From contig JAJCYU010000108.1 of NCBI GenBank assembly GCA_029262755.1, positions 1 through 32,436 on the forward strand: a stretch of 32,436 nt of DNA, in the 5' to 3' direction. Made by a program: the position numbers and the translations under genes. Numbering within the stretch: the first letter of the stretch is position 1; every line of letters begins with the position of its first letter. This document shows, one piece after another, positions 1 through 24,318 of the stretch. The notes beneath the pieces are model-generated. The model ran no database searches. It was not told the DNA's origin and was given only the letters and a program-made list of their open reading frames with translations. This stretch comes from Anaerolineae bacterium. GTDB lineage: Bacteria; Chloroflexota; Anaerolineae; Epilineales; Epilineaceae.

Positions 1-1
1 C

Positions 2-3505: not shown

Positions 3506-3507
3506 TG
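3493..3507 (+). promoter_or_regulatory. Shine-Dalgarno GGAGGT plus TAATG stop/start overlap (translational coupling)
   Basis: GGAGGT at 3493-3498, 6-nt spacer, ATG at 3505 sharing its A with the upstream TAA. Confidence 0.8.
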
Positions 3508-6500: not shown

Positions 6501-9500
6501 CGCCATGTACGTTTCCAGCTACGACACCGACCAGATTCTGCGCTACAACCGGACGACGGGTGCGTTCATCGACATCTTCGTCGAGGACAATCCCAACACG
6601 ACCGTAAGCGAGAGCGGTGGCCTCAACGGTCCCATGGGCATGGAGTGGGGGCCCGACGGCCTGCTCTACGTCACCAGCTTCGTGAACAATGTGGTGCTGC
6701 GCTACGACGGGACGGGTGCCTTCGCCGGCACGTTCGTCGACGAGACCTCGATTCCCTTCCCGAACGGCATGAAGGGCCCGAAGGACCTGACCTTCGGCCC
6801 CGGTGGAGAGCTCTTCATCAGCAGCTCCACCAACAGCCAGGTGCGGCGCTACAACGGCACGACGGGTGTCTTCGAGGCCATCGTGGCCGCCTCGAACGGC
6901 GATCCCGCCATGCCCTTCCCAGGTTCGACCCTCACCCTACCGAATGGTCTGGTCTTTGGGCGCGATCTAAACGGCGACACCTTCGACGACCTGTGGGTGT
7001 CCAGCGAGGGCACGAGCGAGGTGCTCGTGTTCAGCGGCAACCCGGCGTTCCCTGCCCTACTCCAAGCCTTCGTGCTTGGCGCGGACGGCGGGCTGGCCGG
7101 TGGCTCCCACATCACCTTCGGTCCGGAGGGCGACCTGTACGTCAGCAGCGCAGGCGGCGGCGCCGTGTTGCGCTACGACGGCGGCGACGGCGGTTTCCAC
7201 TACGCCTTCGTGCCGCCTGCCCGTGGCGGTTTGGACAGCCCACAGGGCCTGCTCTTCAACGACGGCCGGCTGCTCGTGGTGAGCGCCGGAACCAACCAGG
7301 TGCTCAGCTACGAGACCACGCCGTCGGGCGACCTCGTAGACACCGTCGCCACGGGGCTGCCGGCCCTGCGCGCGGTGCGCGAGTCGGATGACCGATCGCT
7401 GCTCTATGCGGGCTTCCGCAATCCGACGAACAGCACCGAGTTGATCGTCCGTCGTTATCAGAACACCGACGGCGGCTTCGTCGATGATTTCATCGAGCTG
7501 GATTTCATCATCAACACGATCATCGAGGTCTACGATATCGCGCTTGTGCGCGTGGACGACGACACGGAGCGCCTCTATGTCGCCGTGCGCTTCGGTTCCG
7601 GCGACAACGCGATCCTGAAGTTCGGTGGTCCGACCGACATGGACGACCCCGGCATGTTTATCGGCTTTACCGCGTCGTCGCCCTTCGAGGTCTACACCGG
7701 GCTAGACGTGGGTCCTGACAACAACCTATACGTGTCCGTCGTTTCCCCGTTTACCTCACGAGTGCACCGCTACACCTCCGATGGCGCCTCGATGGGCTCC
7801 TTCGCGGCGGGCAGTGGTCTCGCGCAGCCATGGGGCTTGGACTTCGGGGAAGACGGTCATCTCTACGTGGCGGACTCCGCCAACGACCGCGTGATGCAGA
7901 TCGATGGCGCGAGTGGTGGCATCCTCAACCCGAACTTCATTCCGTCGGGCAGTGGCGGGCTGGACGCGCCGCGCGGCGTGCGGATGGGCGACGACCGCCA
8001 GCTCTACGTTGCAAGCGGCAACAACGATCGCGTCTTGCGCTACGACGGCATGACCGGCGCCTATCTGCCGCCGACCTTCGCCTCGTCCGGGATGGATAGT
8101 CCCGACAAGCTCGCAATCGCCCCCAACGGCGATATCTACGTCGCGAGTGCGGACAACGACCGCATCCTGCGCTACGACATCGGTGCGTCGTTCAACCAGG
8201 TTCTGTCGCAGGTCTCCGTGGACGGCCTCAACTGTGGTCGCTATCTGATCTTCGGCCCCGACGACAACCTCTACGTGTCAAGCCACCACGACGACGTGGT
8301 GAAGCGCTACGACGGCACGACGGGGGCGTTCATCGACGTCTTCGCCAGCCATCCGCTGCTCGACGGCCCAGAAGATCTGATCTTCGGCCCCGACGGCAAC
8401 CTGTACGTGGCGAGCTTCTTCAACAACCGCGTGCTGAAGTTCAACGGCTCGACCGGCGCCTTCATTCAGCAGGTGGTGCCCGGGCCCTTTGCATTCATCG
8501 CGGAGAAGCAGCTCGATGGTCCCGTCGGCCTGGCCTTCGGTCCGGAGGACGATGACCTCTACGTGACCAACCACACGGGCAATACCATCACCCGCTACCT
8601 CGGCCCCGGCTTCGGATTCTTGGAGGGCGCACCCTATACGGCGCCCTTCGTGGAGGTCGGCGGCTCCCCGTCGCTCGTTGCGCCGCGTGACTTCGTATTC
8701 GGTCCGGACCTCAACGGCGACGTGATCGGCGAGCTCTTCGTCAGCACGCCTGGCGGTGTCATGGCCTTCGACGGCGAGCTCGGCACCTATGTATCGATCT
8801 TCGCGCAGGGCAACGGCCTGTCCGGCGCGGACGGCCTTCAGTTCGGTCCGGACGGCAACCTCTACGTGGTGAGCCGCGGTACGAGCAACGTGCTTGCCTT
8901 CACGCCACAGGCACCGCCCAACGGCGTAGGCCTCTTCGCCGGTGAGTTCGTGGAGTTCGACCCCAACGACGAGGAGTCGGACCAGCTCAGTGATCCCTAC
9001 GGTCTGGTCTTCGGTCCGGACGGTGACCTCTACGTGGCCAACTGCAAGGGCCACAACGTGCTGCGCTACGACGGCTTCATCCCGAATTACGCGGAGATCA
9101 GCGGGCAGTCCGTGCCGGCTGTATCCCCCTCGGACCCGCGCTCCGTCAACAACATCGCCAGCACCGGCGTTGTTGTCAAGGGCGCCGATCTGACGATCAC
9201 CAAGACGATCGACAACCGGACGCCCTACGAGGGCGATACGGTGGTCTACACGATCAAAGCGATCAACCTCGGCCCGGAACCGGTCACGATGGCCTCCGTC
9301 GACGAGGTCATGGATCCGGGTATCACGATCGTGGACTTCTCGACGGACCGCGGCACCTATACGCCGACCAGCGGAACGATGGGCACGTGGGACATCGGCG
9401 CGCTCGGCGTCTTCACGCCTTCCACGCAAATCGGCGACATGGCCACGTTGATCCTGACCGGCACGGTGGACGCCGGCGCCGCAGCCGTCGTGGACGTCAT

Positions 9501-12500
9501 CACGAACACGGTCACGATCATGGCGCCCGACCAAGGCGATCCGGACGATGACAACAACATCGACCAGGAGCCGGCCTTCCTCACCTTCGCCGACCTGGAG
9601 CTGACCAAGACGGCCACGCCGTCCCAGATCCGCGAGGGCGAGCAGGTGACCTTCGAGCTCACGATCACCAACTTGGGCCGCAACACGGCCGAGAACGTCG
9701 TGGTGACCGACTTCCTGCCCGGCGGGCTTGCCTTTGCAGGCGCCGATCCGGCCGCGGAGTACAACCCGCTGCTCGGACGCTGGACGATCGGGACGCTTGC
9801 CTACGACGAAGGCACCATGACGGGCGATACCCGTACGCTGCTGATCACGGGCACCGCGGTGGCCGGCACCGGCGGCATGACGCTCACCAACATCGCCACC
9901 GTGACGGGCACCAACCTGCCCGATCCCTTCGACGAGAACAACCCGCCGAACAACAACGAAGCCACAGCCGACGTCGGGATCCTCGGCGCGGACCTCCAGA
10001 TGCTCAAGACGGCTTCGCCCGGACCCTACGTGGAGGGGGAGCTGATCACCTTCACGCTCACGGTGAACAACCTCGGGCCGGAGACGGCCGAGGCCGTGCG
10101 CGTCGTGGATCGACTGCCGACCGGGCTGGCCTACGTGGCCGACGACGGAGGCGGCGCCTACGACGGCAGCACGGGCGTCTGGACCGTGGGCGACATGCTC
10201 AACGGTGCGAGCGAGAGCCTCGTGATCTTCGCGCGGCTCCTGCCGGGCTTCGGCGGGCGGACCCTCGTCAACCGCGCGACGGCCACCTCCACGACCGGCG
10301 ATATCGACCGTACGAACAACACAGCGCGCGTTTCCATCGCGGCGCCCAGCGTCGACCTGCACGTCACGGTGATCGCACGGCCCGGCCCCTTCCCGGGGCC
10401 GTTCCAGGATCCGCCGCGCGGACCGGGTTCGTCGTCGGATGGCGGTATCTTGCCGTCGCTCGATGCAACACCGGTGCTCGCTGTTCCTGCGACGAGCGAA
10501 GGCATCGCGCCGGCATCCGAAGCGCTCGCCGGCGTACCGGGCGACGCGTCACGCACGCTCCCGTTCACGCTCGGCGCGGACGGCGTCGCGCCGCTGGTGC
10601 TCAGCGCCAGCCCGGCGCAGATCGTCGCACCGCCGCCGCCGGCCTTCCCGTTCGCGGGGCCGGCCGTCGCGGGCCACGCGCTCTTCTACGAGGTCCGCGT
10701 CCTCAACGAGGGCTCGGGCATCGCAACCAACGTCGTGCTGACCGCTTCGCTTGCGGTCGATGTGCGCTACATCGCCGACGATAACGTTCCGGCTTGTGTC
10801 GAGGCGCCCACGGGCATGCTGACGTGCCAGTTGGGCGACATCGGCCCCGGCCAGACGCGTATTCTGGTGATCCAGACCGAGGTCTCGCCGGATGCCTTCA
10901 TCACGCGGGCGCTGGCCGCGGACGAGCTCGTGCTGCCCTTCTCAGCGCGCGCCGTTTCGGACGAACCGGACACTGACTCGCCGGACAACCTGGCGCGGCA
11001 GCGGACGCTCCTCACGGAGCTGGCCGACTTGGCCGTTGCCAAGGTGAGCAAGCCGGACGATCAGGTGCGCGCCGGTGAGGTCTTCAGCTACACGATCCGC
11101 GTCGAGAACCTGGGGCCAAGCTCCGCACACGACGTGGTGGTGACGGACACGATTCTCTCCGACGGCGTCTTCCAACTCGTCGGGCCGGTTACCAACAGCC
11201 AAGATCCAGCGCGCAACGACGTATGCCGCTTGGTCCCGGCACCGGCGCCGCAATCGGGGCAGTTGATTGAGTGCCGCCTGCAAGACCGGCTCGAGCCGGT
11301 CGGCAGCGGGCTGGGCAGCGGACGCTGGACCATGCAGATCGAGGTCACGGCCGCGGAAACACAAGACATCAACAACTCCGTGCGCGTGGTCTCCGCCGAT
11401 GGCGGCATCCACGAAGCAGGGACGCCGGACCCGGATCTGCGCAACAACGAAGCGCGCGACCGGATTTCGGTGCTCGACACGGCCGATCTCGGGCTGACGA
11501 AGACCGCGGTCGGTGGCGTGCACGATCCGGCCGCCTGCGGTGTCGTAACCGTCACGCCAAACCAGGTGACGGCCGGTGACCGGGTGACCTATACGCTGAC
11601 CGCGACGAACATCGCGCCCGCGCCGGGAGCGCCGGGTGGGAGCACGGCGACCCAGGTCGTCATCGAGGACGCGCTGCCCGCGGGTGTCGAGGTGGTCTCT
11701 GTTGCGGCCGTCGGACCCAACGGGGCGGGCGGCTGCTCGCCCGGCCAGCCGGGCAACCCCGCCTCGCCGCCGCGCTGTGTGATCGACGAGCTTGCGGTGG
11801 GCGAGGCCGCCACGATGACGGTCGTCGTGACGGTCGATCCGGACTTTGTCGGCTCCTCGGATGCGAACCGACTCCACAACGGCGCCGGCACGTGGTCGGA
11901 CGAGATCGATCCCAACCGCGCGAACAACATCGCGCAAGCGACGGTCGTGGTCGGCGAAGTGGCCGACCTGATGGCCATGAAGACCAGCACACCGGGCGCG
12001 GCCGCCGCGGGCGAGGCGCTCACCTTCGAGGTGACCGTCGCCAACAACGGGCCGTCCGCGGCGCGCAACGTGATCGTGCGCGACCAGCTGCCGTCCGAGG
12101 TCACCTTCGTCTCGGCGCGGATCGAGCAGTTGCGCGGACGCGAGAGCTGCACGTATAGCAGCGGCGCCCATGAGGTCGTGTGCTCGTTGCTGGACGTGCC
12201 GGCCGGTGAGCCGCCCATGGGGCAGCGTCGCATCTTCATCGACGTGACCATCCGCCCCGATGCGGGCGCGGGCACGGCCACGAACACGGTCACCGTGTTG
12301 AGCGAGCAGACGCCCGATTGCAACCCGGACAACAACACCGACATCAGCGCGGTGAGCCTGGTGGGCGAGCTCGCGGACCTTGTGATCCGCAAGGACAGCG
12401 AGCCGACCAAGGTCTTCGCGGGCGAGCAGAAGCGCTACCACATCGAGGTCGACAACCGCGGGCCCTCGGACGCCCAGGACGTCGTGGTCTACGACGTCCT

Positions 12501-15500
12501 GCCCGATGAGACCGTGTACGAGATCGATACCAACGATCCCATGTGCACCCAGCCGAGCAACTTGCTGGCGTTCCGGGCACTGTTGGCCGGCGCCAACGAG
12601 GTGCCGCCCGTTGCCACGGAGGCGATGGGTCTGGCCACCTTCGTGCTGGATACGGATACGAACCGCTTGACCTATGCCGTACAGGTGACCGACATAAACG
12701 CCATCACCGGCGCGCACCTGCACCAGGCGCCGGCAGGCGCCAACGGCCCCGTCGTGGCCTTCCTCTTCGACGGGACGCCGCCGGACTTTGAGCCCGCCTC
12801 GCCCATCGTGGGCGAGATCGACCTCGATCCCGCCCTGGCGGCGGCGATCGAAGCCGATCCCGCGGGCTTCTACGTCAACGTGCATACGGCCGCCAACCCG
12901 GCCGGCGAGGTGCGCGGCCAGATGGCCGCCACCATCAACGCTCCGCTGCGCTGCGTGCTCGGTCGCATGGCCGCCGGCAGCAACCGGATGTTCGACATCT
13001 GGGCGCTGGTGCGGCCGGAGACCTTCTCCGGCACGACGATCACCAACGTCGCGATCGTGACGAGCCCGACGGAGCAGGTCCGTCCGCTGACCCCGACCGC
13101 GCAGGCGCCGGGTGTGCCCGGCATCTACGTGATGGGCAGCAGCAACGTCGACGCGTCGAAGAACCTCGTGCTGACCGAGGCAGACCTCAAGGTCGTCAAG
13201 TTCGGCAAGAACGACGGCCAGGTACGCGCCGGTGAGGTGCTGACCTACACCGTAATCATCGACAATCTGGGCCCGAGCTGGGCTGAAGAAGTGTCGCTCA
13301 AGGACGTGCTGCAGGCGGGCGAGACCTTTGACCTGATCGACATCACGAGCAGCCGCGACGCGGTGTGCTCGACCTTGGCCAACGGCATCACCACCACCAA
13401 CCAGATCGCGGGCACGTTGTGGCCGCCTACGCTTGCACCGCCCCCGCCCTTCGGCGTTATCGCGCCGACGGGAGTCGAGGGCATCCTGCAGCGCCTCGAG
13501 ACCGACTGCACGCTCACAGAGGGCGATGATCCGGCCACGCCGGACGTCAACGAGGCGCAGCTCGCGGTGCTCACCGCCGACGGTCCGCCCAACAGCGGAC
13601 GCTGGATTCTGACGATGCGCGTGCGCGCTCGGCAGGCCCAGGACATCGACAACGTCGCGGACGTCGTGTCGGGAATCGCCGAGGAACCGAACCTCGCCAA
13701 CAACCATGCCGAGGTCGAGCACGAGCTGACCGACGTGGCGGATCTGTCCGTGGCGAAGACCGCGACGGGCGAGGTCCAGATCGACGGCCAGCCCGGCCTC
13801 ATCTATGACACGACCGCTCCCGCGCCGGCCTTCCCGCAGGCGCCGAACTACGCCGCATCGCCCGACGAGGTCACCGCGGGACGACGCATCCGCTACCTGC
13901 TCGAGATCTTCAACGCGGGCCCGTCGGACGCGGAGAACACGTTGGTCACCGACCGCTTGCCGCCGGGCGTCACGCTCGTGCCGGGCTCCGTCATCGTGAC
14001 CGTCGACGGGCGCGGCGTGCTGCCGGCCGGAGCGTGCCAGACCGGCACGCCCGGCGATCCGCTCGATCGCCTCACCTGCGGGCTGGGCACCTTGCTCGGC
14101 GTAGAGGTCGGGCGCGACCCGGCCGTGCGCCGCGCGGCGACCATCCAATTCGACGTGCTCGTAGATCCGGCGACGCCGCCCAACGCGGTGTTGGAGAACG
14201 ACGCCGACGTGACGTCGGACGTCTTCGATCCTGACAACCGCAACAACCATGCGTTTGCTCAGACTGCCGTCACGACCCGCGCCGACATGGCGGCCGTGAA
14301 GTCCGCGGTCGGCGAGAACGTGACGGGCTACAGCATCGCGCTTCAGCAGTTCATCGTCGAGGATCTCGCGGACCAGGTTACGGCGGGCATGTTGCTGCGC
14401 TACGAGGTCACGGTGCAGAACGCCGGCCCGAGCGACGCGCGCAACGTCCAAGTGCTGGACGTTCTGCCGCCGACGAGCCAGGTTCAGTACTTGCGCACCG
14501 TCGGCGCCCATTGTCGCCCGGACGATGTCCAGGCCAACGTGTTGGTGTGCGAGCTGGGCGACATGCCGGCCGGCGCGCGCCGCACCTTCGAAATCTTCGT
14601 GCGGGTCGATCCGGCCGTGCCGGACGGCACCGTGCTGGTCAACGGTGTGCAGGTGTTGGAGGGCAGCTCCTCACCGCCCTTCCCGCCGCCGCCGCTCTTC
14701 CCGCCCGCGGCGGCCTTCCCGCCGGTGCTGCCCATCACGGCCGATCCCTTCGCGCCCGACAACTTCGCGGTCCAAAACACGGTGGTCAACGCCGTGGCGG
14801 ATGTCGGCGGCCCGGGTGGCGGTGTCGGAGGCGGGGCCGTGGGCGGCGACGACTTCATTGCCAAGCGCGATGTTCCGGCGCGGCCCGATCTCGACATGGC
14901 CTTCGAGCCCGATCGAGCCTTGGCCGGCAACGAGCATCGTTACCGGATCGCGTTCGGCAATGCCGGTCCGAGTGTCGCGACGAACGTCGTGATCACCGAT
15001 ACGCTTGACTTCAAGCAGGCGGGCATCGCGGGCGAGACCTTCGTACGCTGCGAGCCGCTCGATCCGGACGACCAGGTCACCTGTAGCTACGATCCCGTAG
15101 CGAACATCGTCACGGTTGAGGAATTCCTGGACCACAACGAGCCGATTATCACCGGCGGCAGCGGCACCTTGCCGCCCGGCCTCGGCTTCGACTTCTACCT
15201 GATCACGTTGGTGGATTCGGGCTACGTGCTGGACGCCGCGGATGTGGCGCCGGCAGGTCCGTTCAACAGCGAGTCGGGCGCCGTGGCGCGCAATACGGTC
15301 TTCATCCAGACCGCAACCACCGACTTCCGGCAGACCAACAACCGCGATACCGAGCGCACGCTGATCGTGGCCGAGGCTGATCTGGCCATCGGCAAGACCG
15401 ATCTGGTGGGCAACTTCTTGACCTGCGATCCCGTAATGCGCGGCGGGATGATCACCTACACGCTCACGATCACGAACACCGGACCGTCCGACGCCGCGGA

Positions 15501-18087
15501 TGTATACGTCGTCGACTGGCTGCCGGAGGATGTCGTGGTCGTGGATCCGGCGCGCGTCGACGTGGCGGTCGGCGCAGGCGCGGTCATTCAGGTGCGCGAC
15601 GACGGACGCGTGACGCTGCGGATGGGCTTTGATCCCAATAACGAAGGCAATCCGGAGCTCGGACGTGTGAACGTCGCTTCGGTCATCACTGCAAGCATCA
15701 CCGCGATGGTCCGGCTGGACGCCGACTGCGGCGAGACCGGCAACAACCGGGCTTTCGTCGAGACACGCCGCAACGACCTCGACTGGCCGCCGGTGGTGGT
15801 CGGGCCGCCGCAGTTCGCGCCGTTGGCGCCACCGCGCACGCCGCGCACGCCGACGATTGATCCGGACCTGACCAACAACACGACACGCGAAACGACGACG
15901 GTGGAATGTCCCGCTGTGAAGGTCAACAAGACCGTGTCCTTTGACGGCACGTGTCCGGGCAGAGACTTCACCGTGGTCAACGAGACCGCACAGCCGGTGA
16001 CCTTCTGCTACGAGATCACCAACAACGGCACGACCTATCTGGACACCGTACGCATCACGGATACGCTGCGCCTACGCAGCGAGCCGTGGCCGACCGTGAT
16101 CTTCACCGACACGATCACGTTCGGGGTTGACGAGAAGGTGCCGCTCGCGCCGGGCGAGGTCGTGACACGCTCGGTGAGCGTTCCGCACGTCACGCGCGAG
16201 TGCGGCAACGTCTTCAACGACGTCGAGGTCACGGCCAACCCGGTGAACTCGGGTCGCACGGACCTGCCCTGCCTTGACGACGTGCGCGACACGGATACCG
16301 CGCGCATCGAGGTGCCGTGTCTGGGCGTCGACTTCCGGCTCCAACTTCCGATCCTAAACACCGACGAGTGCACGACCTGGATTCAAGTGCAGAACGTCGG
16401 CGACAACCCCACGATCCCGATGCTCGTCATCTGGGGCGAGGCCGGCGCGTGTCCGCCGCAAGCGGCCGGTCCTTTGAAGGCCGAGTGTGGCGGCTTGCTG
16501 CGACCGGGCAGCGCCTGGAGCTTTGCTTTCGATCAGGTGCCCGCCGGTTCCAACAGCGCAGTGGTCTACTCGCTCTCCGCCGAACCGGTGGAGGACGAGC
16601 CGGGGCAGCCCGTGCCCTTCGGCCTGATCCTGTGCGACGAGGTCTTCCTCAACGTGATCGGCGACGATCTGGACTGGTTGATCTTCGACACAGCCTACCG
16701 TCAGCGCGGCAGCTACAACGGCCGTAGCTTCGCGGAGTATCAGGGCGAGCCGCTGGCCGTCACGGTCAACCGCGGTTGTCCGGACCCTGTCGATCCCAAC
16801 CGCACGGTGCACGCGGCCTACTCGGGCATCTCGAGCGACATCGAAGGCGCCTACGATCCGGACTTCGGCGGCTACACCTTCTATGCGCCGATGATCTTCG
16901 CCGGGCGCACCGATCTCAACAGCCGTATCAACATCCACAACTCGGGCGAGCTGTGCACGTCGTTGGAGGTCTGGTTCAAGGACCAAGAGAACTGCCTGCG
17001 ACCGGTCCTCGGCGATGTGCTGTCGGTCTCGCGCGGTGAGACGGTCACCTTCGATCCGAACACCGTAGTGGGCCCGGACTGGCTGGGCTCTGCGTGGATC
17101 CGTTCCACCCAGCCGCTTGGCATCATCGTCGATACGCTCGGCCCCAACCACTTCAGCGCCTACGCCGGCGTGCCGGGCGACGTCTTCGCGCTCGACTTCT
17201 CGCTGGGCGACCAGATCAACTACGCGCCGCTTGTCTACAGCGAGTACCAGGGCTGGGACGCGGCGATTACCGTGCAGAACCTGTCCGGTAGCATGGCCGC
17301 CAAGGTCAAGGTCTACTTCCAGGATCATGCGGGCGGCATCATCACCACCTTGGTCGACTGGATCTGCCCGCGCGGTAGCCAGACCTTCTTCCTGCCGGTC
17401 ATCGATGACCTGCCGGGTGGATGGGTCGGTTCGGCGCGCATCGAGAGCCAGGAATGGTGGAGCCCGGGCCAGCCGCTCGTGGATCCGCCGCGCATCCAAT
17501 CCGTCGTCGTGCTCGACCGCTGGAGTGATCCGGCGCGCACGGAGCGGCGCGAGGCGCTGGCCTACAACGCGCACACGGAGACGATCTACGAGTGGCAGCT
17601 GGGTAGCGGCAAGGGTGGTCTGACCACCGGCTCCGCCGTGTTCTCGCTGCCGATGGTGGCCAAGGGCAACCGCGGCGTGACCACCGAGATTGCGATCACG
17701 AACCTGGTTCCGAAGCCCGGCTTCACCGACTTCGCGATCTTCCTCTACGACCAGAACGGACTGCTGGACTGGGTTTGCGAGAAGCTGGGCGAGAAGCAGG
17801 TCGAGTACATCGACCTCGAGACCTGGGGCTGGGTCAACCCCTCCTTCCTGGGCTCGATGGTGGTTAGCGCCAGCTACTGGGATCACCACGTCTTCGACGA
17901 TGAGGGCAACCACGTCCGCAACCTGGTGGGTCTTGGCGGCATCGCCGTCGAGCGCATCGGGCGCGTACGCGGCTCGGAGGATCTGCCGGGCGACGAGACG
18001 AAGGCCTACGAGAGCTTCCCGCTCTTCGACCACTTCGCTCCGGAACGGCTACCCAACTGCCCAGGCTTGCGACAGCCGACGCCCTAG
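3505..18087 (+). CDS. Giant (4860 aa) secreted adhesin-like protein: signal peptide, NIDO-like domain, ~30 Vgb/NHL-like beta-propeller blades, ~15 DUF11-type repeats, CHRD domain, Cys-rich C-terminal 4-module domain
   Basis: Uninterrupted 14.6-kb ORF with a good SD. Signal peptide: RRVLR-AAGLALLFAAALGSG-VARA. NIDO-like motif: FGAILPYWDDL...FIVQWEQV. Propeller blades: repeated (G/D)xxFGPDGNLYVSS. DUF11 units: ADLxxxK...NxGP...DxLP...DPxxxNN. CHRD motifs: LAGANEVPP, GAHLH, FYVNVHT...GEVRGQ. Confidence 0.93.
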   Translation: MTTPKRLPALRPTRRRERLPGPGDGRAADRTLRLTVPRRVLRAAGLALLFAAALGSGVARAGRSPSETASPDLAPTMLMGGGSPAEGYYTFIDSNEPPNPPGVIPPEFDFDDIHFTGTPLGLTDDSCSLVPMDGEFGADDDEPPFVFTYHDIDHQQIFVCSNGLLSFGAPFTSFANACPPTATTPFGAILPYWDDLNPSTFGEVYWEVKGDFPMRTFIVQWEQVSRFAVSADTVIVQAKLFERSGDIIFEYFNVESGAPDPLAFKPGGELMVGSTAGHKVQRWSGGTFVGNHVRSRQTGLMNPGGMTVGDGTDGGPGDLDGDTFDDLFVSSFDTNEVIAYRGSTAVPGLLNQGLPISKFIPAGLGGLDGPRGLTYGPGNNLYVASFNTNQVLRYDGATGAFLGVFVAAGNGLSGPDDIVFGPDGNLYVSSHGSDRVLRYTAGGVFLDTFVAAGSGGLDGPRGLAFGHDGNLYVSSENTDEVLRYYGVSGAFAGDAVAAGMNGLDAPRGLRFGADGNGDGFADLYVSGFASDQVHRFDVGLQPTWSGAGLSDPRGMTLGPTGDILVANFGGNNILRFDQATGFFAGTLVPGGSAGLTGPTDIAVIGTDIYVTSSSNEVLRFNGTTGAPVGTGKFVWNPFPPFPDETGGLVGPRGIEVGPTGDLFVTTSTNVVKRYQGPSGGSPGSYLGDFITGLSSPVGILLRGGNFLIADRGTASVRSFSATTGAPAAGGVAPFTGGLDDPEHMLVDPASSALLVTDSATDAILAFDATGALLGDFILAGEGFLTEPSGIAVGASGWVLAASASISTMHQWRPLVVGPLGTGGDGSRGASASIGLDGPDAPNAGLGYVCNPGNTGYAPSVDAGLAVRFDAPPPPGADLEVLYKSTDMECYNEGDPITFEIKVTNNGRYNATGVTVEDQVPPEIIVTGSSATKGSYDSGTGIWTIGDLARDEMATLQIFGTIGPDTAADHGRFREEFVVDDEVPTGRLRKPIDAVIGPDGAMYVSSYDTDQILRYNRTTGAFIDIFVEDNPNTTVSESGGLNGPMGMEWGPDGLLYVTSFVNNVVLRYDGTGAFAGTFVDETSIPFPNGMKGPKDLTFGPGGELFISSSTNSQVRRYNGTTGVFEAIVAASNGDPAMPFPGSTLTLPNGLVFGRDLNGDTFDDLWVSSEGTSEVLVFSGNPAFPALLQAFVLGADGGLAGGSHITFGPEGDLYVSSAGGGAVLRYDGGDGGFHYAFVPPARGGLDSPQGLLFNDGRLLVVSAGTNQVLSYETTPSGDLVDTVATGLPALRAVRESDDRSLLYAGFRNPTNSTELIVRRYQNTDGGFVDDFIELDFIINTIIEVYDIALVRVDDDTERLYVAVRFGSGDNAILKFGGPTDMDDPGMFIGFTASSPFEVYTGLDVGPDNNLYVSVVSPFTSRVHRYTSDGASMGSFAAGSGLAQPWGLDFGEDGHLYVADSANDRVMQIDGASGGILNPNFIPSGSGGLDAPRGVRMGDDRQLYVASGNNDRVLRYDGMTGAYLPPTFASSGMDSPDKLAIAPNGDIYVASADNDRILRYDIGASFNQVLSQVSVDGLNCGRYLIFGPDDNLYVSSHHDDVVKRYDGTTGAFIDVFASHPLLDGPEDLIFGPDGNLYVASFFNNRVLKFNGSTGAFIQQVVPGPFAFIAEKQLDGPVGLAFGPEDDDLYVTNHTGNTITRYLGPGFGFLEGAPYTAPFVEVGGSPSLVAPRDFVFGPDLNGDVIGELFVSTPGGVMAFDGELGTYVSIFAQGNGLSGADGLQFGPDGNLYVVSRGTSNVLAFTPQAPPNGVGLFAGEFVEFDPNDEESDQLSDPYGLVFGPDGDLYVANCKGHNVLRYDGFIPNYAEISGQSVPAVSPSDPRSVNNIASTGVVVKGADLTITKTIDNRTPYEGDTVVYTIKAINLGPEPVTMASVDEVMDPGITIVDFSTDRGTYTPTSGTMGTWDIGALGVFTPSTQIGDMATLILTGTVDAGAAAVVDVITNTVTIMAPDQGDPDDDNNIDQEPAFLTFADLELTKTATPSQIREGEQVTFELTITNLGRNTAENVVVTDFLPGGLAFAGADPAAEYNPLLGRWTIGTLAYDEGTMTGDTRTLLITGTAVAGTGGMTLTNIATVTGTNLPDPFDENNPPNNNEATADVGILGADLQMLKTASPGPYVEGELITFTLTVNNLGPETAEAVRVVDRLPTGLAYVADDGGGAYDGSTGVWTVGDMLNGASESLVIFARLLPGFGGRTLVNRATATSTTGDIDRTNNTARVSIAAPSVDLHVTVIARPGPFPGPFQDPPRGPGSSSDGGILPSLDATPVLAVPATSEGIAPASEALAGVPGDASRTLPFTLGADGVAPLVLSASPAQIVAPPPPAFPFAGPAVAGHALFYEVRVLNEGSGIATNVVLTASLAVDVRYIADDNVPACVEAPTGMLTCQLGDIGPGQTRILVIQTEVSPDAFITRALAADELVLPFSARAVSDEPDTDSPDNLARQRTLLTELADLAVAKVSKPDDQVRAGEVFSYTIRVENLGPSSAHDVVVTDTILSDGVFQLVGPVTNSQDPARNDVCRLVPAPAPQSGQLIECRLQDRLEPVGSGLGSGRWTMQIEVTAAETQDINNSVRVVSADGGIHEAGTPDPDLRNNEARDRISVLDTADLGLTKTAVGGVHDPAACGVVTVTPNQVTAGDRVTYTLTATNIAPAPGAPGGSTATQVVIEDALPAGVEVVSVAAVGPNGAGGCSPGQPGNPASPPRCVIDELAVGEAATMTVVVTVDPDFVGSSDANRLHNGAGTWSDEIDPNRANNIAQATVVVGEVADLMAMKTSTPGAAAAGEALTFEVTVANNGPSAARNVIVRDQLPSEVTFVSARIEQLRGRESCTYSSGAHEVVCSLLDVPAGEPPMGQRRIFIDVTIRPDAGAGTATNTVTVLSEQTPDCNPDNNTDISAVSLVGELADLVIRKDSEPTKVFAGEQKRYHIEVDNRGPSDAQDVVVYDVLPDETVYEIDTNDPMCTQPSNLLAFRALLAGANEVPPVATEAMGLATFVLDTDTNRLTYAVQVTDINAITGAHLHQAPAGANGPVVAFLFDGTPPDFEPASPIVGEIDLDPALAAAIEADPAGFYVNVHTAANPAGEVRGQMAATINAPLRCVLGRMAAGSNRMFDIWALVRPETFSGTTITNVAIVTSPTEQVRPLTPTAQAPGVPGIYVMGSSNVDASKNLVLTEADLKVVKFGKNDGQVRAGEVLTYTVIIDNLGPSWAEEVSLKDVLQAGETFDLIDITSSRDAVCSTLANGITTTNQIAGTLWPPTLAPPPPFGVIAPTGVEGILQRLETDCTLTEGDDPATPDVNEAQLAVLTADGPPNSGRWILTMRVRARQAQDIDNVADVVSGIAEEPNLANNHAEVEHELTDVADLSVAKTATGEVQIDGQPGLIYDTTAPAPAFPQAPNYAASPDEVTAGRRIRYLLEIFNAGPSDAENTLVTDRLPPGVTLVPGSVIVTVDGRGVLPAGACQTGTPGDPLDRLTCGLGTLLGVEVGRDPAVRRAATIQFDVLVDPATPPNAVLENDADVTSDVFDPDNRNNHAFAQTAVTTRADMAAVKSAVGENVTGYSIALQQFIVEDLADQVTAGMLLRYEVTVQNAGPSDARNVQVLDVLPPTSQVQYLRTVGAHCRPDDVQANVLVCELGDMPAGARRTFEIFVRVDPAVPDGTVLVNGVQVLEGSSSPPFPPPPLFPPAAAFPPVLPITADPFAPDNFAVQNTVVNAVADVGGPGGGVGGGAVGGDDFIAKRDVPARPDLDMAFEPDRALAGNEHRYRIAFGNAGPSVATNVVITDTLDFKQAGIAGETFVRCEPLDPDDQVTCSYDPVANIVTVEEFLDHNEPIITGGSGTLPPGLGFDFYLITLVDSGYVLDAADVAPAGPFNSESGAVARNTVFIQTATTDFRQTNNRDTERTLIVAEADLAIGKTDLVGNFLTCDPVMRGGMITYTLTITNTGPSDAADVYVVDWLPEDVVVVDPARVDVAVGAGAVIQVRDDGRVTLRMGFDPNNEGNPELGRVNVASVITASITAMVRLDADCGETGNNRAFVETRRNDLDWPPVVVGPPQFAPLAPPRTPRTPTIDPDLTNNTTRETTTVECPAVKVNKTVSFDGTCPGRDFTVVNETAQPVTFCYEITNNGTTYLDTVRITDTLRLRSEPWPTVIFTDTITFGVDEKVPLAPGEVVTRSVSVPHVTRECGNVFNDVEVTANPVNSGRTDLPCLDDVRDTDTARIEVPCLGVDFRLQLPILNTDECTTWIQVQNVGDNPTIPMLVIWGEAGACPPQAAGPLKAECGGLLRPGSAWSFAFDQVPAGSNSAVVYSLSAEPVEDEPGQPVPFGLILCDEVFLNVIGDDLDWLIFDTAYRQRGSYNGRSFAEYQGEPLAVTVNRGCPDPVDPNRTVHAAYSGISSDIEGAYDPDFGGYTFYAPMIFAGRTDLNSRINIHNSGELCTSLEVWFKDQENCLRPVLGDVLSVSRGETVTFDPNTVVGPDWLGSAWIRSTQPLGIIVDTLGPNHFSAYAGVPGDVFALDFSLGDQINYAPLVYSEYQGWDAAITVQNLSGSMAAKVKVYFQDHAGGIITTLVDWICPRGSQTFFLPVIDDLPGGWVGSARIESQEWWSPGQPLVDPPRIQSVVVLDRWSDPARTERREALAYNAHTETIYEWQLGSGKGGLTTGSAVFSLPMVAKGNRGVTTEIAITNLVPKPGFTDFAIFLYDQNGLLDWVCEKLGEKQVEYIDLETWGWVNPSFLGSMVVSASYWDHHVFDDEGNHVRNLVGLGGIAVERIGRVRGSEDLPGDETKAYESFPLFDHFAPERLPNCPGLRQPTP
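4276..5970 (+). repeat. 12 Vgb/NHL-like propeller blades (probably two 6-bladed propellers) within the giant protein
   Basis: Twelve ~45-aa units counted by eye, e.g. GLTYGPGNNLYVAS, DIVFGPDGNLYVSS, GLAFGHDGNLYVSS, GMTLGPTGDILVAN, GIEVGPTGDLFVTT. Confidence 0.75.
6406..9078 (+). repeat. 18 Vgb/NHL-like propeller blades (probably three 6-bladed propellers) within the giant protein
   Basis: Eighteen units counted by eye, from DAVIGPDGAMYVSS to GLVFGPDGDLYVAN. Cys at 8233 (blade 13) and 9043 (blade 18) fit ring closure of a 6-bladed propeller. Confidence 0.75.
9184..16320 (+). repeat. Tandem DUF11-type Ig-like repeats (stalk)
   Basis: Units start at 9184, 9589, 9988, 10351, 11023, 11482, 11962, 12373, 13180, 13738, 14281, 14797, 15376 and ~15910. 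A further split unit starts at 6130. Most have ADLxxxK, YxxxVxNxGPSxAxxVxxxDxLP and a terminal DPxxxNN. Confidence 0.85.
12571..12924 (+). other. CHRD domain inside the giant protein
   Basis: FRALLAGANEVPPV...G.A...LTY...ITGAHLH.APAG.NGPVV..L...FYVNVHT.ANP.GEVRGQ matches the CHRD consensus as I know it. Confidence 0.88.
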
Positions 18088-18169
18088 CAGGCGTCCCGCC
18101 GGGTGCGCGCTCGCCGAGTGTGGGCGGCATGGTGGTTGCGACGGTGACGTCTGCGAACGGACGTGAAGG

Positions 18170-18201
18170 GGCGGGGAGGATCCGTACGGATCCTCCCCGC
18201 C
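18170..18201 (+). terminator. Perfect 32-bp palindrome, probable intrinsic (possibly bidirectional) terminator between convergent genes
   Basis: GGCGGGGAGGATCCGT|ACGGATCCTCCCCGCC is its own reverse complement. It lies ~80 nt after the giant's stop and is followed by TTT on the plus strand (short U tract). Confidence 0.65.
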
Positions 18202-18526
18202 TTTGCGTCGGTGGAACTCGAGCGGCTACGGGTCGCATCGGCCGGCGGTCCTGCGCTGGGCCATGGTCATGAGGCCAGGCGAAACGAGAGTCGCGGGCGC
18301 CTGCGAACGGTGCCGGTGATCCCGGCCGGCGGTCTCCGTCCGTCTTAGCACCATCGTGATCCGGCACGCGCGCCGGGCGGCCTCCGGGCGATCGTCCCGC
18401 AGACCGGCACGCGCGCGTTGCAAGCGCACGTGCGATAGCGGCGACGCGGTTGCGACCCGTGCGACCCCTGCCGACCCCTGCGAGCAACCGCGCACCGTTA
18501 CGCGGCTACGTATCGCTCGCGTCGGG

Positions 18527-21500
18527 CTACGGCATGCTCTTGTACGTGAACGGGGCGTAGATCCGCACCCGCGTCGACTGTGTCGGCTGCGGTTCCGTTG
18601 TCGGCGTGATGCTGCCCGTGCCCTGGGTGGGCGTCGCGCTTGCGATCGGCCCTGGGGTGTCGCTCGGTCCCGCGTCCGCGGTTGCGGTCGCGCCCGCTGT
18701 GGAAGTGGGCTCCGGGGTGGAGGTTGGTGTGCCGCTGGGCTTCGGCGCCGCCGTGGGGCTTGCCGTTGCCGTCGGTGTCGGGGTGCTGGTCGGCTTTGGA
18801 GCCGCGGTGGGTGTCGGCGTTGCGGTCTCGCCACCCGGCCCGACGGGTGTGACGCTCGGCTTCGGCGGGCTTGTGCGCGTTGGGGTGGCCGTGTCCTTGG
18901 GCGGGCTCGTGGCGGTCCCGGTTGCGCTTGCCTTGGGCCTGGGCGTGCGGGTCTCGGTTGGCGTGGTGCTCGGCGTCGGCGTCGCGGAAACGGCGGGCGA
19001 CGGCGTCGGCGTGGCGGAGGGCGGCGCTGAACGCTCGCTGAAGGTGAGCTCCAACTCGTAGGTCTGCGTGGTGTTCGACGCGCCGGCATAGCCGAACACG
19101 CGCACGCGGTGCGCCCCAAGGTGTGTCACCGTACGCTCCACGCGCTCCGGGTTGAGCCCTTCTGCGTTGGAGAGCGCGATCAGCGTGCCGGCCGGATCGT
19201 AGACATGAAGGTCATAGTCGGCTGGGAGGTCGCGTAGCTCCACCTCGAAGGTCTGACCGGGACGCAGCGCGACCTTGAACCAATCCTGATCGCTGGCATC
19301 GCAGATGTAGCCGACTTGGATCGTGCCGGGCGCGAGGTCCACGGCGTCTCCGAAAATCTCGTTGGGCTCGAACCACTCGTTGCACGCACCGCTGCTGCCG
19401 GGAGGGGCGGTGACCGTGTCGACCTCGAGTACGTAGGGGTTGATAGGATCGGCTGCGCCGGCGTAGCCGTAGACGTGCCACGCGAGCTCTGCGACCGCGC
19501 TCGCGGTGTAGGTGATCGCTTCCGGCGTGTCACCGCCGTTGCGAGAGAAGAGGGTGACGAGGTCGCCATCGGCATAGAGCTCGAGCTCGAGATCGATTCC
19601 CGTCGGCGGTACGAGCTGCGCGACGACCTGCATGCCGGCGCTCACGCTTGTCCGGAACCAATCGACGTCGTTTGCATCGCATAGGAATCCCTGCTGGACG
19701 ATGCCGAGGCCAAGCACCGCCGCTTGTGCGCGGGTCTCGTTGGGCTCGAACGATTCGTTGCATGGTTGGAGCCCGCCGCCGCCGCCCGGCTCGTCCGGAC
19801 GTTCGAACTGGAGCCGGTAGCGCGTCCCGGCATCGAAGGCGCCTTCGTAGCCGGTCACCCGTACGCGGTTCTGGCCCGCAGGGAGGGTGACGGCGATGCT
19901 CTCTTCGGCCGTTCCGCCGAGAGCGGAGCGTCCGCGCTCGCCCGTTGTCTCGTCGTAGACGACCAGATCGTAGTCGGCGGGTAGGCCCTTGAGTCGAATG
20001 ATGAAGCGTGTTTCTGCCGCCAGGTCGAGGCGATACCAGTCCTCGTCGTTTGCGTCACAGATCCAACCGAACACTTCGACCACCCGACCCGCCAGTGCGA
20101 CGGGGCTGGCCGCGGCGAAGGTCTCGTTGGGTTCGTAGGACTCGCCGCAAGGCGAGACGGGCCCCTGGGTGACCGCGATCTGCAACGTATAGGGCTCCGT
20201 CGAGTCGTGCCACGTGCTGAAGCCGAAGACCTGCACGTAGTACGTCCCGGTCTCTTGCGCCTCATGATGGATGGTCTCGTCGGAAACGCCGCCGTTGGCG
20301 GAGAACGCAACGCGGTTGCCGTCCGGTCGGTACAAATCCAGCTCGAAGTCGGCAGGCAGGTCCTCGAGCAGCAGCTCGATGTGTTGCCCCATCTGGACGG
20401 GAATGCCGTACCAGTCGCGATCGCTGGGGTCGCAGATCCACGCGCTGATGCGCTGATCCGCCGTCGCGAAGACATGGGCCGTCTGACGGGTCTCGTTCGG
20501 TTCGTAGCCTTCCGTGCAACCCAGGGTCGGCGGGGCGGACGCTGCGAAGGTGATGCGGTAGTCGTGGGACCGATCGTGGGCGCCGTCGTAGCCGAACACG
20601 CGCACGTACAGCCTGTCGCCGCCGGCGCGCTCCACGCTCACGCTCTCGGCTTCCATGCCCCCTCGCATACTCTGCGCGATGCGGTCGCCGCGGTGGTTGT
20701 AGAGCTCGAGGTCATAGTCCTGCGGAGGTGCGGCCAAGTCGACGCGGATCGACGTACCTGTGGTCGGCACGAAGGTATACCAGTCTTCGTCCTCCGCCGT
20801 GCAGATCTTGGCATCGTAGGCTCGGTACGTTACGGCTTGGGCCTCCGCGCGATCTTCATTCGGTTCGTAGGAGTCCGAGCACGTGGATCCGCCGGTCAGG
20901 GCAAAGATCTCCATGTAGTAGGTGTCCTGGATATGACCACCGCTCGTTGCCTGCGGCGATAGCTGGACGTACCACGTCCCCGCCGCGTCCGTCATGGTAT
21001 CAAAGCGCAGCGGCGCGGTTCCCGTCGAAGACCACGTTCGCCAATACGAGCCGTCGGGCCGCCAGAGCGCGACCTGAAGAGGAACGGGCATCCCTTGGAG
21101 GTCGACACGGATCGTCGCGCCCGAGCCGACTGCAAGGGAGAACCAGTCTACGTCGCTGCGGCCGCCTGACATGGGGCAGATACGGCCTTGAATTCCTTGA
21201 CCGCTTTGGATCGGCGCGGCGATTCCCCGCGTGCCGTTGGGCTCGAAGGCGTCCGTGCAAGGCGGCGCAACGGAGCTCAGGCGGACGTCCAGCGCGTATG
21301 GCCTGGTCTCGTCGGAGTCGTCCGTCTTCGCAAACACATGCACGGTGTAGCGTCCTGCCCGCGTGGTGGTATGACGCATGTCCTCCTCTGCGCCCGGCCC
21401 GTTTTGCACGCTTGCGGCAACGTCAACGCCGTCTGGGTCGTATAGGCGCATATCGATGTCGATCGCATGACCGGTCAAATCGACCTGAATCGTATCGCCT

Positions 21501-22198
21501 GCCTGCGCGACGTCGAAGGCGAACCAATCACGATCGCCGAAGCCGTCTTGGCCGGAGCAGATATAGGACGAGACGCGCGTGCCGGGCGTCATCAACCATG
21601 CGCCGGCCAACGTGTCGTTGGGTTCGTAGGTGTCGGGGCAGGAGCCACCGGTGGGAATGTCCGTGTACCAAACCCGCAGCCGGTACTCGCTGATGCTATT
21701 CCAGACGCCGCCAACGCCGTATACGCGCAGGTAGAGCGTGGAACCGAAGACCGTATCAACCGTGATCGACTCATCTTGTGTTCCTGGTTCGTAGGAGCCG
21801 GACACAACGCGCGTCGTGCCGAAGGCCTCCGGCACCCGCAACTCGATATCGTAATCGTGCGGTAGACCGGTCAACGTGACCCGCACCCGTGAATTGGCCG
21901 GAGGGTTGAACACGAACCAGTCTTCGTCGCCGGAGGGGCAGATCGCTCCTACGAGTCCATCCGGCTCACCGCTGGGCCGGTTCGCGGGGTTAAGCACGGA
22001 GGCAGTATCGAAGGAGTTATTCGGTTCGCGGAGGAAGTCGGGGCAGGCGACCTGCGCCCCAAGAGGCTCCGGCTTGGCGTGCGAAAGGAAGCCGAGGGTG
22101 CAAACCGCGAGCCAGACGATGACCAGGAGTGGCTTGCGAATGCGCGGAAGTGCGGACGCGAGCCTGGCGAAGGACGTTAGGGCGGCGAAGCGAATCAC
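18527..22198 (-). CDS. Secreted protein with 8 tandem PPC-like (pre-peptidase C-terminal/collagen-binding-like) domains, Pro/Thr stalk and C-terminal IYAPFTYK tail (1223 aa)
   Basis: GTG at 22198 is preceded by AAGGAGG with a 5-nt spacer, so I prefer it to the track start at 22276. Signal-like segment: RIRKPLLVIVWLAVCTLGFLSHA. Eight units follow C.(D/E)..EPN...(I/L)C...D.DW(F/Y); most also have D(Y/F)(D/E)L.LY and VFG(Y/F). PT-rich region at ~18572-19030. Confidence 0.88.
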   Translation of the reverse strand: MIRFAALTSFARLASALPRIRKPLLVIVWLAVCTLGFLSHAKPEPLGAQVACPDFLREPNNSFDTASVLNPANRPSGEPDGLVGAICPSGDEDWFVFNPPANSRVRVTLTGLPHDYDIELRVPEAFGTTRVVSGSYEPGTQDESITVDTVFGSTLYLRVYGVGGVWNSISEYRLRVWYTDIPTGGSCPDTYEPNDTLAGAWLMTPGTRVSSYICSGQDGFGDRDWFAFDVAQAGDTIQVDLTGHAIDIDMRLYDPDGVDVAASVQNGPGAEEDMRHTTTRAGRYTVHVFAKTDDSDETRPYALDVRLSSVAPPCTDAFEPNGTRGIAAPIQSGQGIQGRICPMSGGRSDVDWFSLAVGSGATIRVDLQGMPVPLQVALWRPDGSYWRTWSSTGTAPLRFDTMTDAAGTWYVQLSPQATSGGHIQDTYYMEIFALTGGSTCSDSYEPNEDRAEAQAVTYRAYDAKICTAEDEDWYTFVPTTGTSIRVDLAAPPQDYDLELYNHRGDRIAQSMRGGMEAESVSVERAGGDRLYVRVFGYDGAHDRSHDYRITFAASAPPTLGCTEGYEPNETRQTAHVFATADQRISAWICDPSDRDWYGIPVQMGQHIELLLEDLPADFELDLYRPDGNRVAFSANGGVSDETIHHEAQETGTYYVQVFGFSTWHDSTEPYTLQIAVTQGPVSPCGESYEPNETFAAASPVALAGRVVEVFGWICDANDEDWYRLDLAAETRFIIRLKGLPADYDLVVYDETTGERGRSALGGTAEESIAVTLPAGQNRVRVTGYEGAFDAGTRYRLQFERPDEPGGGGGLQPCNESFEPNETRAQAAVLGLGIVQQGFLCDANDVDWFRTSVSAGMQVVAQLVPPTGIDLELELYADGDLVTLFSRNGGDTPEAITYTASAVAELAWHVYGYAGAADPINPYVLEVDTVTAPPGSSGACNEWFEPNEIFGDAVDLAPGTIQVGYICDASDQDWFKVALRPGQTFEVELRDLPADYDLHVYDPAGTLIALSNAEGLNPERVERTVTHLGAHRVRVFGYAGASNTTQTYELELTFSERSAPPSATPTPSPAVSATPTPSTTPTETRTPRPKASATGTATSPPKDTATPTRTSPPKPSVTPVGPGGETATPTPTAAPKPTSTPTPTATASPTAAPKPSGTPTSTPEPTSTAGATATADAGPSDTPGPIASATPTQGTGSITPTTEPQPTQSTRVRIYAPFTYKSMP

Positions 22199-22288
22199 GA
22201 TGGCCTCCTTGCAACGGGCGCGTGGTCGGGCGCGGCACGCGGAGCGGTCGGGCGCGATAAGCGCCTTGACGTCCAAGCGACTACCGAG

Positions 22289-24262: not shown

Positions 24263-24318
24263 GGGGCTCGGTCCGCTGTTGGCGGCCTGAGATCCGCGCG
24301 GCGAGCCGGTGTCTTCGG

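Follow-up and report, generated by a model that had tools for sequence, protein, structure and literature searches.

Two catalogued families come closest to the elements described here. According to the main text of the study by De Souza, Iyer and Aravind (2009, PMC2739507), which defined the ASRAH superfamily, a near-invariant asparagine ends strand 2 of the domain, TM1070 is a tetramer, secreted Chloroflexi members always occur as tetrads and actinobacterial forms as dyads, and extracellular members are predicted to bind sugar or peptidoglycan. The second family is the YLP-box, which NCBIfam holds as two short models, NF050076 (sort_motif_YLP, 11 positions) and NF053834 (ultrashort_CTERM, 10 positions), under the name "YLP-box putative sorting motif-containing protein", with no mechanism given in the library entry. 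Both families are represented in the window analyzed here, the whole of a 32,436-nt contig (C108; JAJCYU010000108.1) from the 5.06-Mb genome of an uncultured Chloroflexota (428 contigs, 84% complete), hereafter the host genome. The region 16333..18084 on the plus strand can be assigned with high confidence to the ASRAH tetrad that ends a 4860-aa surface protein, with four ASRT/TM1070-like beta-sandwiches packed as one unit, and the convergent neighboring gene, encoding an exported PPC-repeat (pre-peptidase C-terminal) protein, ends in a divergent copy of the YLP-box. The first strand of ASRAH modules and the YLP-box resemble each other, and a probability of roughly 40% is given to the reading, drawn from sequence comparison, that the box docks as a donor strand onto some ASRAH module, the likeliest being one that starts without its own first strand.

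Some described surface systems follow a comparable logic. In chaperone-usher pili and in the type V pili of Bacteroidota, the terminal strand of another subunit completes a fold with an open strand place. Cohesin-dockerin pairs and SLH-type proteins provide non-covalent surface display, with a common small tag on the exoenzymes and a scaffold held by the wall. Literature searches found no paper on the YLP-box tail and no earlier mention of its likeness to ASRAH strand 1; the main text of PMC2739507 makes no connection between the first-strand motif and a C-terminal tail. The link between the two families and the acceptor candidate without strand 1 are new, while both parts are families already catalogued.

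The ASRAH tetrad of the giant proteins

The 4860-aa exported protein (3505..18087, plus strand, from Pfam and translation) is preceded by the 3' part of a paralogue, and each ends in the same domain. The original prediction had divided the last ~580 residues of both proteins into four modules, each opening with a proline-containing strand, and this division proved real by register alignment, by the conserved proline and by the strands of an AlphaFold2 (AF2) model. Modules 1 to 4 of the giant occupy 16333-16878, 16879-17217, 17218-17640 and 17641-about 17997 on the plus strand. Their first strands are FRLQLPIL (16333..16356, residue 4277), FYAPMIFA (16879..16902, residue 4459), NYAPLVYS (17218..17241, residue 4572) and FSLPMVAK (17641..17664, residue 4713), all four of them strands in the AF2 model. 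In the upstream protein, the tetrad covers the last ~590 residues (1730..3502, plus strand), with first strands starting at 1730, 2276, 2615 and 3041. All eight first strands are in frame, as is the C-terminal RIYAPFTYK of the PPC protein, with which the prediction had compared them.

Each first strand is followed after 12-17 residues by an hxhxN stretch. Modules 2-4 stay in register over residues 2 to ~80, with 24-27% identity (blastp), and their strand-1 proline is near-invariant among 40 homologues (P193, P306 and P447) and invariant in 22/22 single modules. The asparagine at the end of strand 2 is similarly conserved: N210 is invariant and N323 and N464 reach at least 90% in the 40 homologues, while N22 reaches at least 90% in the 22 single modules. 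The AF2 model of residues 4270-4860 has a predicted local distance difference test score (pLDDT) of 88.1 and a predicted template modeling score (pTM) of 0.90. The motif strands lie at model residues 9-12, 187-199, 302-312 and 443-451 and each leads into the hxhxN strand; modules 2-4 have eight strands each (DSSP of the model), and module 1 bears a helical insert. After module 4 comes a fifth, terminal strand, TKAYESFPL (17998..18024, plus strand; model strands 563-567 and 569-571, pLDDT ~89). This strand is strand-1-like, reads SKAFEAFPIFD in close homologues and is followed by a conserved PxCPGxP end (17998-18084 with the strand); many homologues of the domain terminate exactly at CPGQP.

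When compared with 48,161 PDB representatives by VIA, module 2 (model residues 178-289) matched TM1070 (1nc7_A) with Z 12.8 and a root-mean-square deviation of 2.0 over 101/116 aligned residues, and the Anabaena sensory rhodopsin transducer (2ii7_A) with Z 8.8; module 3 was best on FlgD-type sandwiches (Z 6.7). The same two structures were the best PDB sequence matches of a profile built from the 22 single modules, both weak (1nc7, E 0.11; 2ii7, E 0.49). With the whole 591-aa model, Foldseek returned only generic tandem Ig-like, MG-domain, pilin and arrestin matches (TM ~0.1). The last ~580 residues of the giants had no Pfam match, an NCBIfam scan of the domain gave nothing, and two tetrad and module profile searches of the PDB found no solved tetrad. 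Pfam DUF5719 matches paralogous tetrads of the host genome, on contigs C71 and C212, and 3 of a set of 19 tetrads.

The fold match, the strand-2 asparagine and the tetrad arrangement fit the definition of ASRAH in the main text of PMC2739507, and the ~580-aa end of the giants is therefore taken as an ASRAH tetrad in a single chain, corresponding to the tetramer of TM1070. It shares the eight-strand sandwich, the strand-2 asparagine and the fixed block of four with the members described there, namely ASRT (PDB 2II7), TM1070 (PDB 1NC7), the Chloroflexi amidase tetrads and, as regards the sandwich, the actinobacterial dyads (DUF5719). It differs from them in ending DUF11/NHL proteins instead of amidases, in the helical insert of module 1, and in the fifth strand with its PxCPGxP end. 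The domain is kept as one block in 878 representative homologues at E <=1e-3 (331 at E <=1e-30), and about 20 open reading frames (ORFs) of the host genome carry it in full, including proteins of 11,555, 4834 and 3121 residues. Since the same study predicts sugar binding for extracellular ASRAH domains, the tetrad most likely binds cell-wall glycan and would in this way hold the giant on the cell.

C-terminal tails and first strands

The PPC protein (18527..22276, minus strand, 1249 codons with an uncertain start codon) lies convergent to the giant. It has eight PPC repeats according to Pfam and an N-terminal hydrophobic, signal-like stretch, which together fit an exported protein. Its translation runs through a linker of ~190 residues rich in Pro, Thr, Ala and Ser (18569..19150, minus strand) and terminates in PTQSTRVRIYAPFTYKSMP followed by the stop codon, with RIYAPFTYK at 18565-18539. 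By translation and motif alignment, the tail RIYAPFTYKSMP (18530..18565, minus strand) is a YAP variant of the YLP-box ultrashort C-terminal motif: it has the aromatic-x-Pro-hydrophobic core, then a basic residue, and no more than ~15 residues before the stop. Its divergences are YAP, F at +3, T at +4 and K. Neither NF050076 nor NF053834 matched its last 40 or last 20 residues at E up to 10, and NCBIfam gave nothing on the last 157 residues of the protein.

The statement that many exported Chloroflexota proteins end in such a tail was borne out, both by terminal enrichment in the host genome and by phylum-specific stops. Genes were called as stop-to-stop frames filtered by GC content at third codon positions. 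Among 5212 likely-coding ORFs, a narrow form of the motif starts 50 times within the C-terminal 20 residues, whereas 10-residue bins farther from the end average 4.2, and 74 ORFs end in a wider form that allows Trp. The consensus is (I/V/L)(Y/F/W)(L>V,A)P(L/V/F/I/M)(A/V/T)x(R), followed by 0-15 residues to the stop. A basic residue is conserved 3-4 places past the proline (R at +6 in 29/74), and a Pro/Thr linker precedes about half of the 74 tails. By a crude test, 44/74 have a signal-like hydrophobic start; 13 are cut 5' by a contig end. After 14 were dropped by eye (short, membrane-like, cytoplasmic-looking, or the window's own gene), the remaining 60 were scanned with Pfam. Matches were obtained for 36/60, nearly all to extracytoplasmic families: five subtilases, two M14, two C25 and one M60 peptidases, a beta-lactamase-fold protein, CotH, three VWA, FG-GAP, NHL, DUF11 and others, with one clear false positive, a fumarate-reductase flavoprotein. 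In this genome, some 60-120 exported proteins, enzymes as well as adhesin-like ones, terminate in the YLP-box.

Across species genomes, the pattern IYLPL[AV]xR was found at at least 121 loci; among the matches listed, 60/121 had a stop within 20 codons after the motif and a frame open for at least 60 codons. Among the 80 matches listed with titles, the motif was such a tail, with a stop within 20 codons, in 37/46 from Chloroflexota and in 2/34 from other phyla. IYLPLVxR followed by a stop was also seen on a 3.4-kb contig labeled Gammaproteobacteria, which may be mis-binned, and on a 1.37-Mb contig labeled Holophagae, where the frame is open for only 64 codons upstream. The two NCBIfam models match 9/9 canonical Chloroflexota tails, NF053834 being above its cut-off in all nine, which come from other genomes; they match only 1/21 and 2/21 of the tails of the host genome, which share the consensus and the extreme C-terminal place on exported proteins. 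Two paralogues on contig C146 (858 and 878 aa) end in QVWLPWVGR and QVWLPWAGSAR, and this Leu-Pro-Trp form, missed by the narrower motif, is common in distant tetrad homologues (P0108, P0137 and P0141).

The tail copies the first-strand consensus of the modules, as had been proposed: an aromatic residue, a small or aliphatic one, the proline, two hydrophobic residues and then a basic residue. A hidden Markov model iterated on the host genome collected 86 modules in 31 ORFs, and nearly all the modules open with the tail pattern, the basic residue included. The 59 first strands extracted from them follow h-(Y/F/h)-(A/L/V)-P-L-h-(R/Y)-(R/K/S), for example YAPLIRRR, FAPLVRKR, YLPVVRSN and HLPLVRHD. 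A matrix made from these 59 strands only was applied to 4011 ORFs without modules, and the C-terminal window was compared with two internal control windows. At scores of at least 10, it recovered 32 C-terminal windows against 3 and 1 in the controls; at 12 or more, 20 against 1 and 0; and at 14 or more, 14 against 0 and 0. Tails are also over-represented on module-bearing ORFs (5/30 versus 116/5182 others; odds ratio 8.7, p 5.6e-4), and ~33/150 giant-domain homologues among the matches listed end in such a tail, as judged by eye. At the level of these alignments and scores, the likeness between YLP-box and ASRAH strand 1 is statistically solid.

Under a different explanation, a dedicated enzyme or receptor that has no relation to ASRAH reads the YLP-box as a signal for sorting or processing. 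A protease or transpeptidase cutting after the conserved Arg would be one example, and the strand-1 likeness would reflect shared strand chemistry or common descent. This explanation is considered almost as likely as docking. The basic residue 3-4 places past the proline agrees with it, and the NCBI curators file the motif as a putative sorting motif. To our knowledge, the C-terminal sorting signals of known mechanism (LPXTG, PEP-CTERM, GlyGly-CTERM and the type IX secretion system's C-terminal domain) are all read by enzymes, which also counts in its favor. Against it, the YLP tail lacks the membrane-spanning stretch that enzyme-read signals of this kind are known to carry. The sortase/LPXTG signal, like the YLP tail, is a Pro-containing C-terminal signal on surface proteins of a probable monoderm; unlike it, the YLP tail ends 0-15 residues past the motif, without hydrophobic helix or long charged end. 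Sortase itself was excluded as the reader of the tail, since the two or three sortase genes of the host genome have separate canonical LPxTG-helix-Arg substrates. These substrates, on contigs C376 (three ORFs together) and C393, carry LPATG, LPSTG or LPKTG, then a helix and an Arg-rich end; the sortase genes are on C9, C281 and C200.

The position of some motif copies bears on the same question. A few Chloroflexota copies stand near the N-terminus or between domains, and such placements are more in keeping with a movable docking tag than with a processing site restricted to the C-terminus. Five non-terminal IYLPLVxR copies were noted, either just behind a signal-like start or with a Pro/Thr linker before them and another domain after; in one of them (L237) a VWA-like start follows the motif.

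It is also conceivable, though improbable, that the tail acts alone, either by binding a wall polymer or the membrane directly or by zipping up with the tails of other proteins to form a common beta sheet within a sheath or surface layer. Lineages of the host's type are often filamentous and sheathed, and the motif is short, hydrophobic and then basic, and stands at the tip of long, flexible linkers in many proteins that are not related to each other. In turn, a stretch of only eight residues in which a proline is invariant would make a poor polymer binder, and a tail acting alone explains neither the strand-1 likeness nor the co-occurrence described below. Beside docking and reading by an enzyme or receptor, it is the least likely explanation.

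Candidate acceptors across Chloroflexota

The distribution of tails and tetrads was compared in a sample of 200 Chloroflexota genomes, two of them unpublished (one pattern hit each, neither tail-rich). Tails were counted with a DNA pattern that has 10 matches in the host genome, nearly all at known tail ORFs; earlier DNA-pattern proxies were dropped, as true tails made up only 3/15 up to 35/167 of their matches there. Genomes with at least five pattern matches were called tail-rich, a threshold set after the counts were seen, and 10/200 qualified, clearly above the reversed-pattern control. The tetrad was found in 42/200 genomes and single-module matches in 46, with 23 candidates per genome scored. 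All 10 tail-rich genomes carry the module family and tetrad, against 32/190 of the others (one-sided Fisher 6.6e-8, a value that overstates independence because the 10 genomes span only three families, f8, f16 and f32, nearly all tetrad-positive). Kin are not independent in such genome counts, and the incompleteness of metagenome-assembled genomes (MAGs) cuts both ways. Modules were also present in 11/15 further genomes picked for a verified tail, and a sample of the module-free genome G043 had no tails either.

A suitable acceptor may be a smaller protein. Secreted proteins of ~450-540 aa, made up of a signal peptide and four ASRAH modules, are encoded once or twice in many genomes. Of 20 such tetrad loci retrieved, 18, from 18 genomes, were readable (one lacked an ORF of 300 aa and another was masked). 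In 18/18, module 1 lacks strand 1, the profile matching only from position 10-16. Module 1 starts 0-12 residues after the AxA-type signal end, that is directly at the end of the signal peptide, which leaves no room for the strand. Modules 2-4 open with tail-like strands, for example VRLPLIMRNNSG, LYMPFMVRNRSG and IALPYVLRNRGS. Judged by these sequences, the ~500-aa tetrad is a better acceptor candidate than the giants.

The host genome has several of these tetrads, four of them on contig C212 beside a Wzy_C-like gene. Within positions 1-20000 of that contig, the tetrad genes lie at 33-848, 964-2634, 2934-4475 and 18052-19611 and flank a 1319-aa Wzy_C/O-antigen-ligase-like membrane protein with TPR repeats, two Kelch propeller proteins and an NAGPA-like phosphodiester glycosidase. 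This is possibly a surface-glycan locus, and the ligase-like neighbor gives a context that fits the predicted binding of sugar or wall glycan by ASRAH.

The original prediction had placed the docking elsewhere: the tail would displace or complement a first strand in the tetrads of the giants, which would then carry YxP-tailed cargo such as the PPC protein, or tail and modules may both be read by the same sorting machinery. The likeness does hold for modules 2 and 3 of the giants in particular, the PPC gene adjoins the giant, and the ~20 host ORFs with the full domain would offer many potential sites. The scaffold role found no support, however, and docking onto the giants is very unlikely. All four modules have their own strand 1, confidently modeled by AF2, and the fifth, terminal strand is in place as well, so that no strand slot is free; conservation of the ~580-aa unit as one block agrees with a pseudo-tetramer that is closed. 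Few genomes have the giant-type domain, which occurs in 16/200 of the sample at E <=1e-10 and nearly always as modules 2-3 only (a single genome, G022, matches outside them), yet 10 genomes are tail-rich. The adjacency of PPC gene and giant is no general rule either, since 10/116 tail genes have a module gene within 10 kb, compared with 109/2087 other genes (p 0.13). A natural chain of domain, linker and tail, P0108 (680 aa), was also folded (pLDDT 83.9, pTM 0.85). Its last 20 residues had a pLDDT of ~40 and formed no strand, no docking in cis was predicted, and its module 1 has its own strand 1; as a model, this fold gives no support for docking and is not evidence against binding.

Besides the late choice of threshold and the narrow spread of the tail-rich families, several observations weigh against docking onto the ~500-aa tetrad. 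Two fragmented MAGs, G208 and G210, which belong to the four verified-tail genomes without modules, are tail-rich, with 21 and 20 pattern matches (0 and 3 in the controls), and neither the module profile nor the tetrad profile matched them. As counter-examples they are the strongest candidates, and they also speak for a dedicated enzyme or receptor as reader of the tail. The tetrad without strand 1 occurs in five genomes with only 0-2 pattern matches (G044, G077, G007, G189 and G144), and many further genomes (G095, G140, G182, G131 and G171) are rich in tetrads and have no pattern matches. In a 400-kb sample of the module-bearing G171, two tail matches were found against 1.4 in the controls, which is no enrichment. 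Tetrads in such tail-poor genomes mean that the free strand place exists without obvious donors. Finally, the curated YLP-box models match 1/35 ASRAH first strands, and that one below the cut-off (12.7 bits versus 15); by sequence the first strands resemble the YLP-box but would not be filed under it. Taken together, tails seem to occur in only some of the lineages that bear tetrads, G208 and G210 being possible exceptions. If an enzyme or receptor reads the tail, the specific likeness to strand 1 of one domain and this co-occurrence are left as coincidence.

The docking proposed here would proceed as follows. The YLP-box would be a free-standing copy of ASRAH strand 1, usually on a flexible linker, and the tail would supply a donor strand, attaching non-covalently through beta-strand addition to an ASRAH module whose strand-1 place is free. 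The most probable acceptor would be the first module of the conserved secreted ~500-aa tetrad, which starts without strand 1 after the signal-peptide cleavage site. This tetrad could serve as an adaptor that holds the tailed cargo on the wall glycan to which it is predicted to bind. The analysis shows the domain fold, the resemblance of the motifs, the first module without strand 1 and the joint occurrence of tails and tetrads; the binding, the direction of the added strand and the glycan ligand are all inferred. In its full form, in which around a hundred exported enzymes per genome are displayed by an 8-residue tail slotting into the strand-1-less module of a wall-glycan-binding tetrad, the proposal is more doubtful than docking as such.

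Donor-strand systems share this logic, in that the donor resembles the strand it replaces. They polymerize like subunits into fibers, whereas here many unrelated cargoes would meet on one adaptor, and ASRAH is not a pilin fold. For the YLP-box, moreover, no chaperone, usher or trimming protease is known. An acceptor fold missing one strand is not what AF2 predicts for the giants; it is what the sequences of the ~500-aa tetrads suggest throughout. With respect to cohesin-dockerin and SLH-type display, the YLP tag is 8-12 residues long and is not a folded domain, and its binding is proposed to occur by strand addition.

Gene context and significance

Apart from the tetrad, the 4860-aa giant consists, from the N-terminus, of a hydrophobic anchor or signal, NHL/SGL propeller repeats, 13 DUF11 domains, one CHRD domain and DUF7507. 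The single CHRD domain stands amid the DUF11 repeats (window 12569-12925, residues 3023-3140, E 3e-30). The upstream paralogue (2..3505, plus strand, 1167 codons) is a 3' part, its 5' end being cut by the contig end. The tetrads of the two tandem giants are 71% identical. At 3502-3507, the stop codon of the upstream gene shares one base with the ATG of the 4860-codon giant, and the two genes are probably translationally coupled. Further giants ending in the same tetrad are encoded by an 11,555-codon ORF on contig C209, whose frame reaches the contig end so that the gene is longer still, and by a 4834-codon ORF on contig C44.

The other genes of the window encode two UbiA prenyltransferases, an AI-2E transporter, a DNA methylase, a DeoC-like aldolase, an aldehyde dehydrogenase, a SurA-like protein and an ABC-class ATPase. 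In 22362-25015 on the minus strand, the two UbiA-family frames overlap by ~100 bases and the AI-2E transporter frame overlaps the second; gene starts in this region need proper calling.

Chloroflexota abound in soils, sediments and wastewater sludge, and we know of no account of how they keep exoenzymes on their surface. Literature searches found no bench work on the YLP-box or on extracellular ASRAH tetrads. The link between the two reduces the question to a tail peptide and one recombinant protein of ~45 kDa. Even without binding, the likeness aids annotation, as the "unknown" C-terminal domain of the giants and the tail can both be named. If the tail does bind the tetrad, strand complementation would have a new use, and a surface-display tag of 8 residues would become available for these organisms. 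Such a display, comparable to that of cohesin and dockerin but achieved by strand complementation, would be the first mechanism for both the YLP-box and the extracellular ASRAH tetrads.

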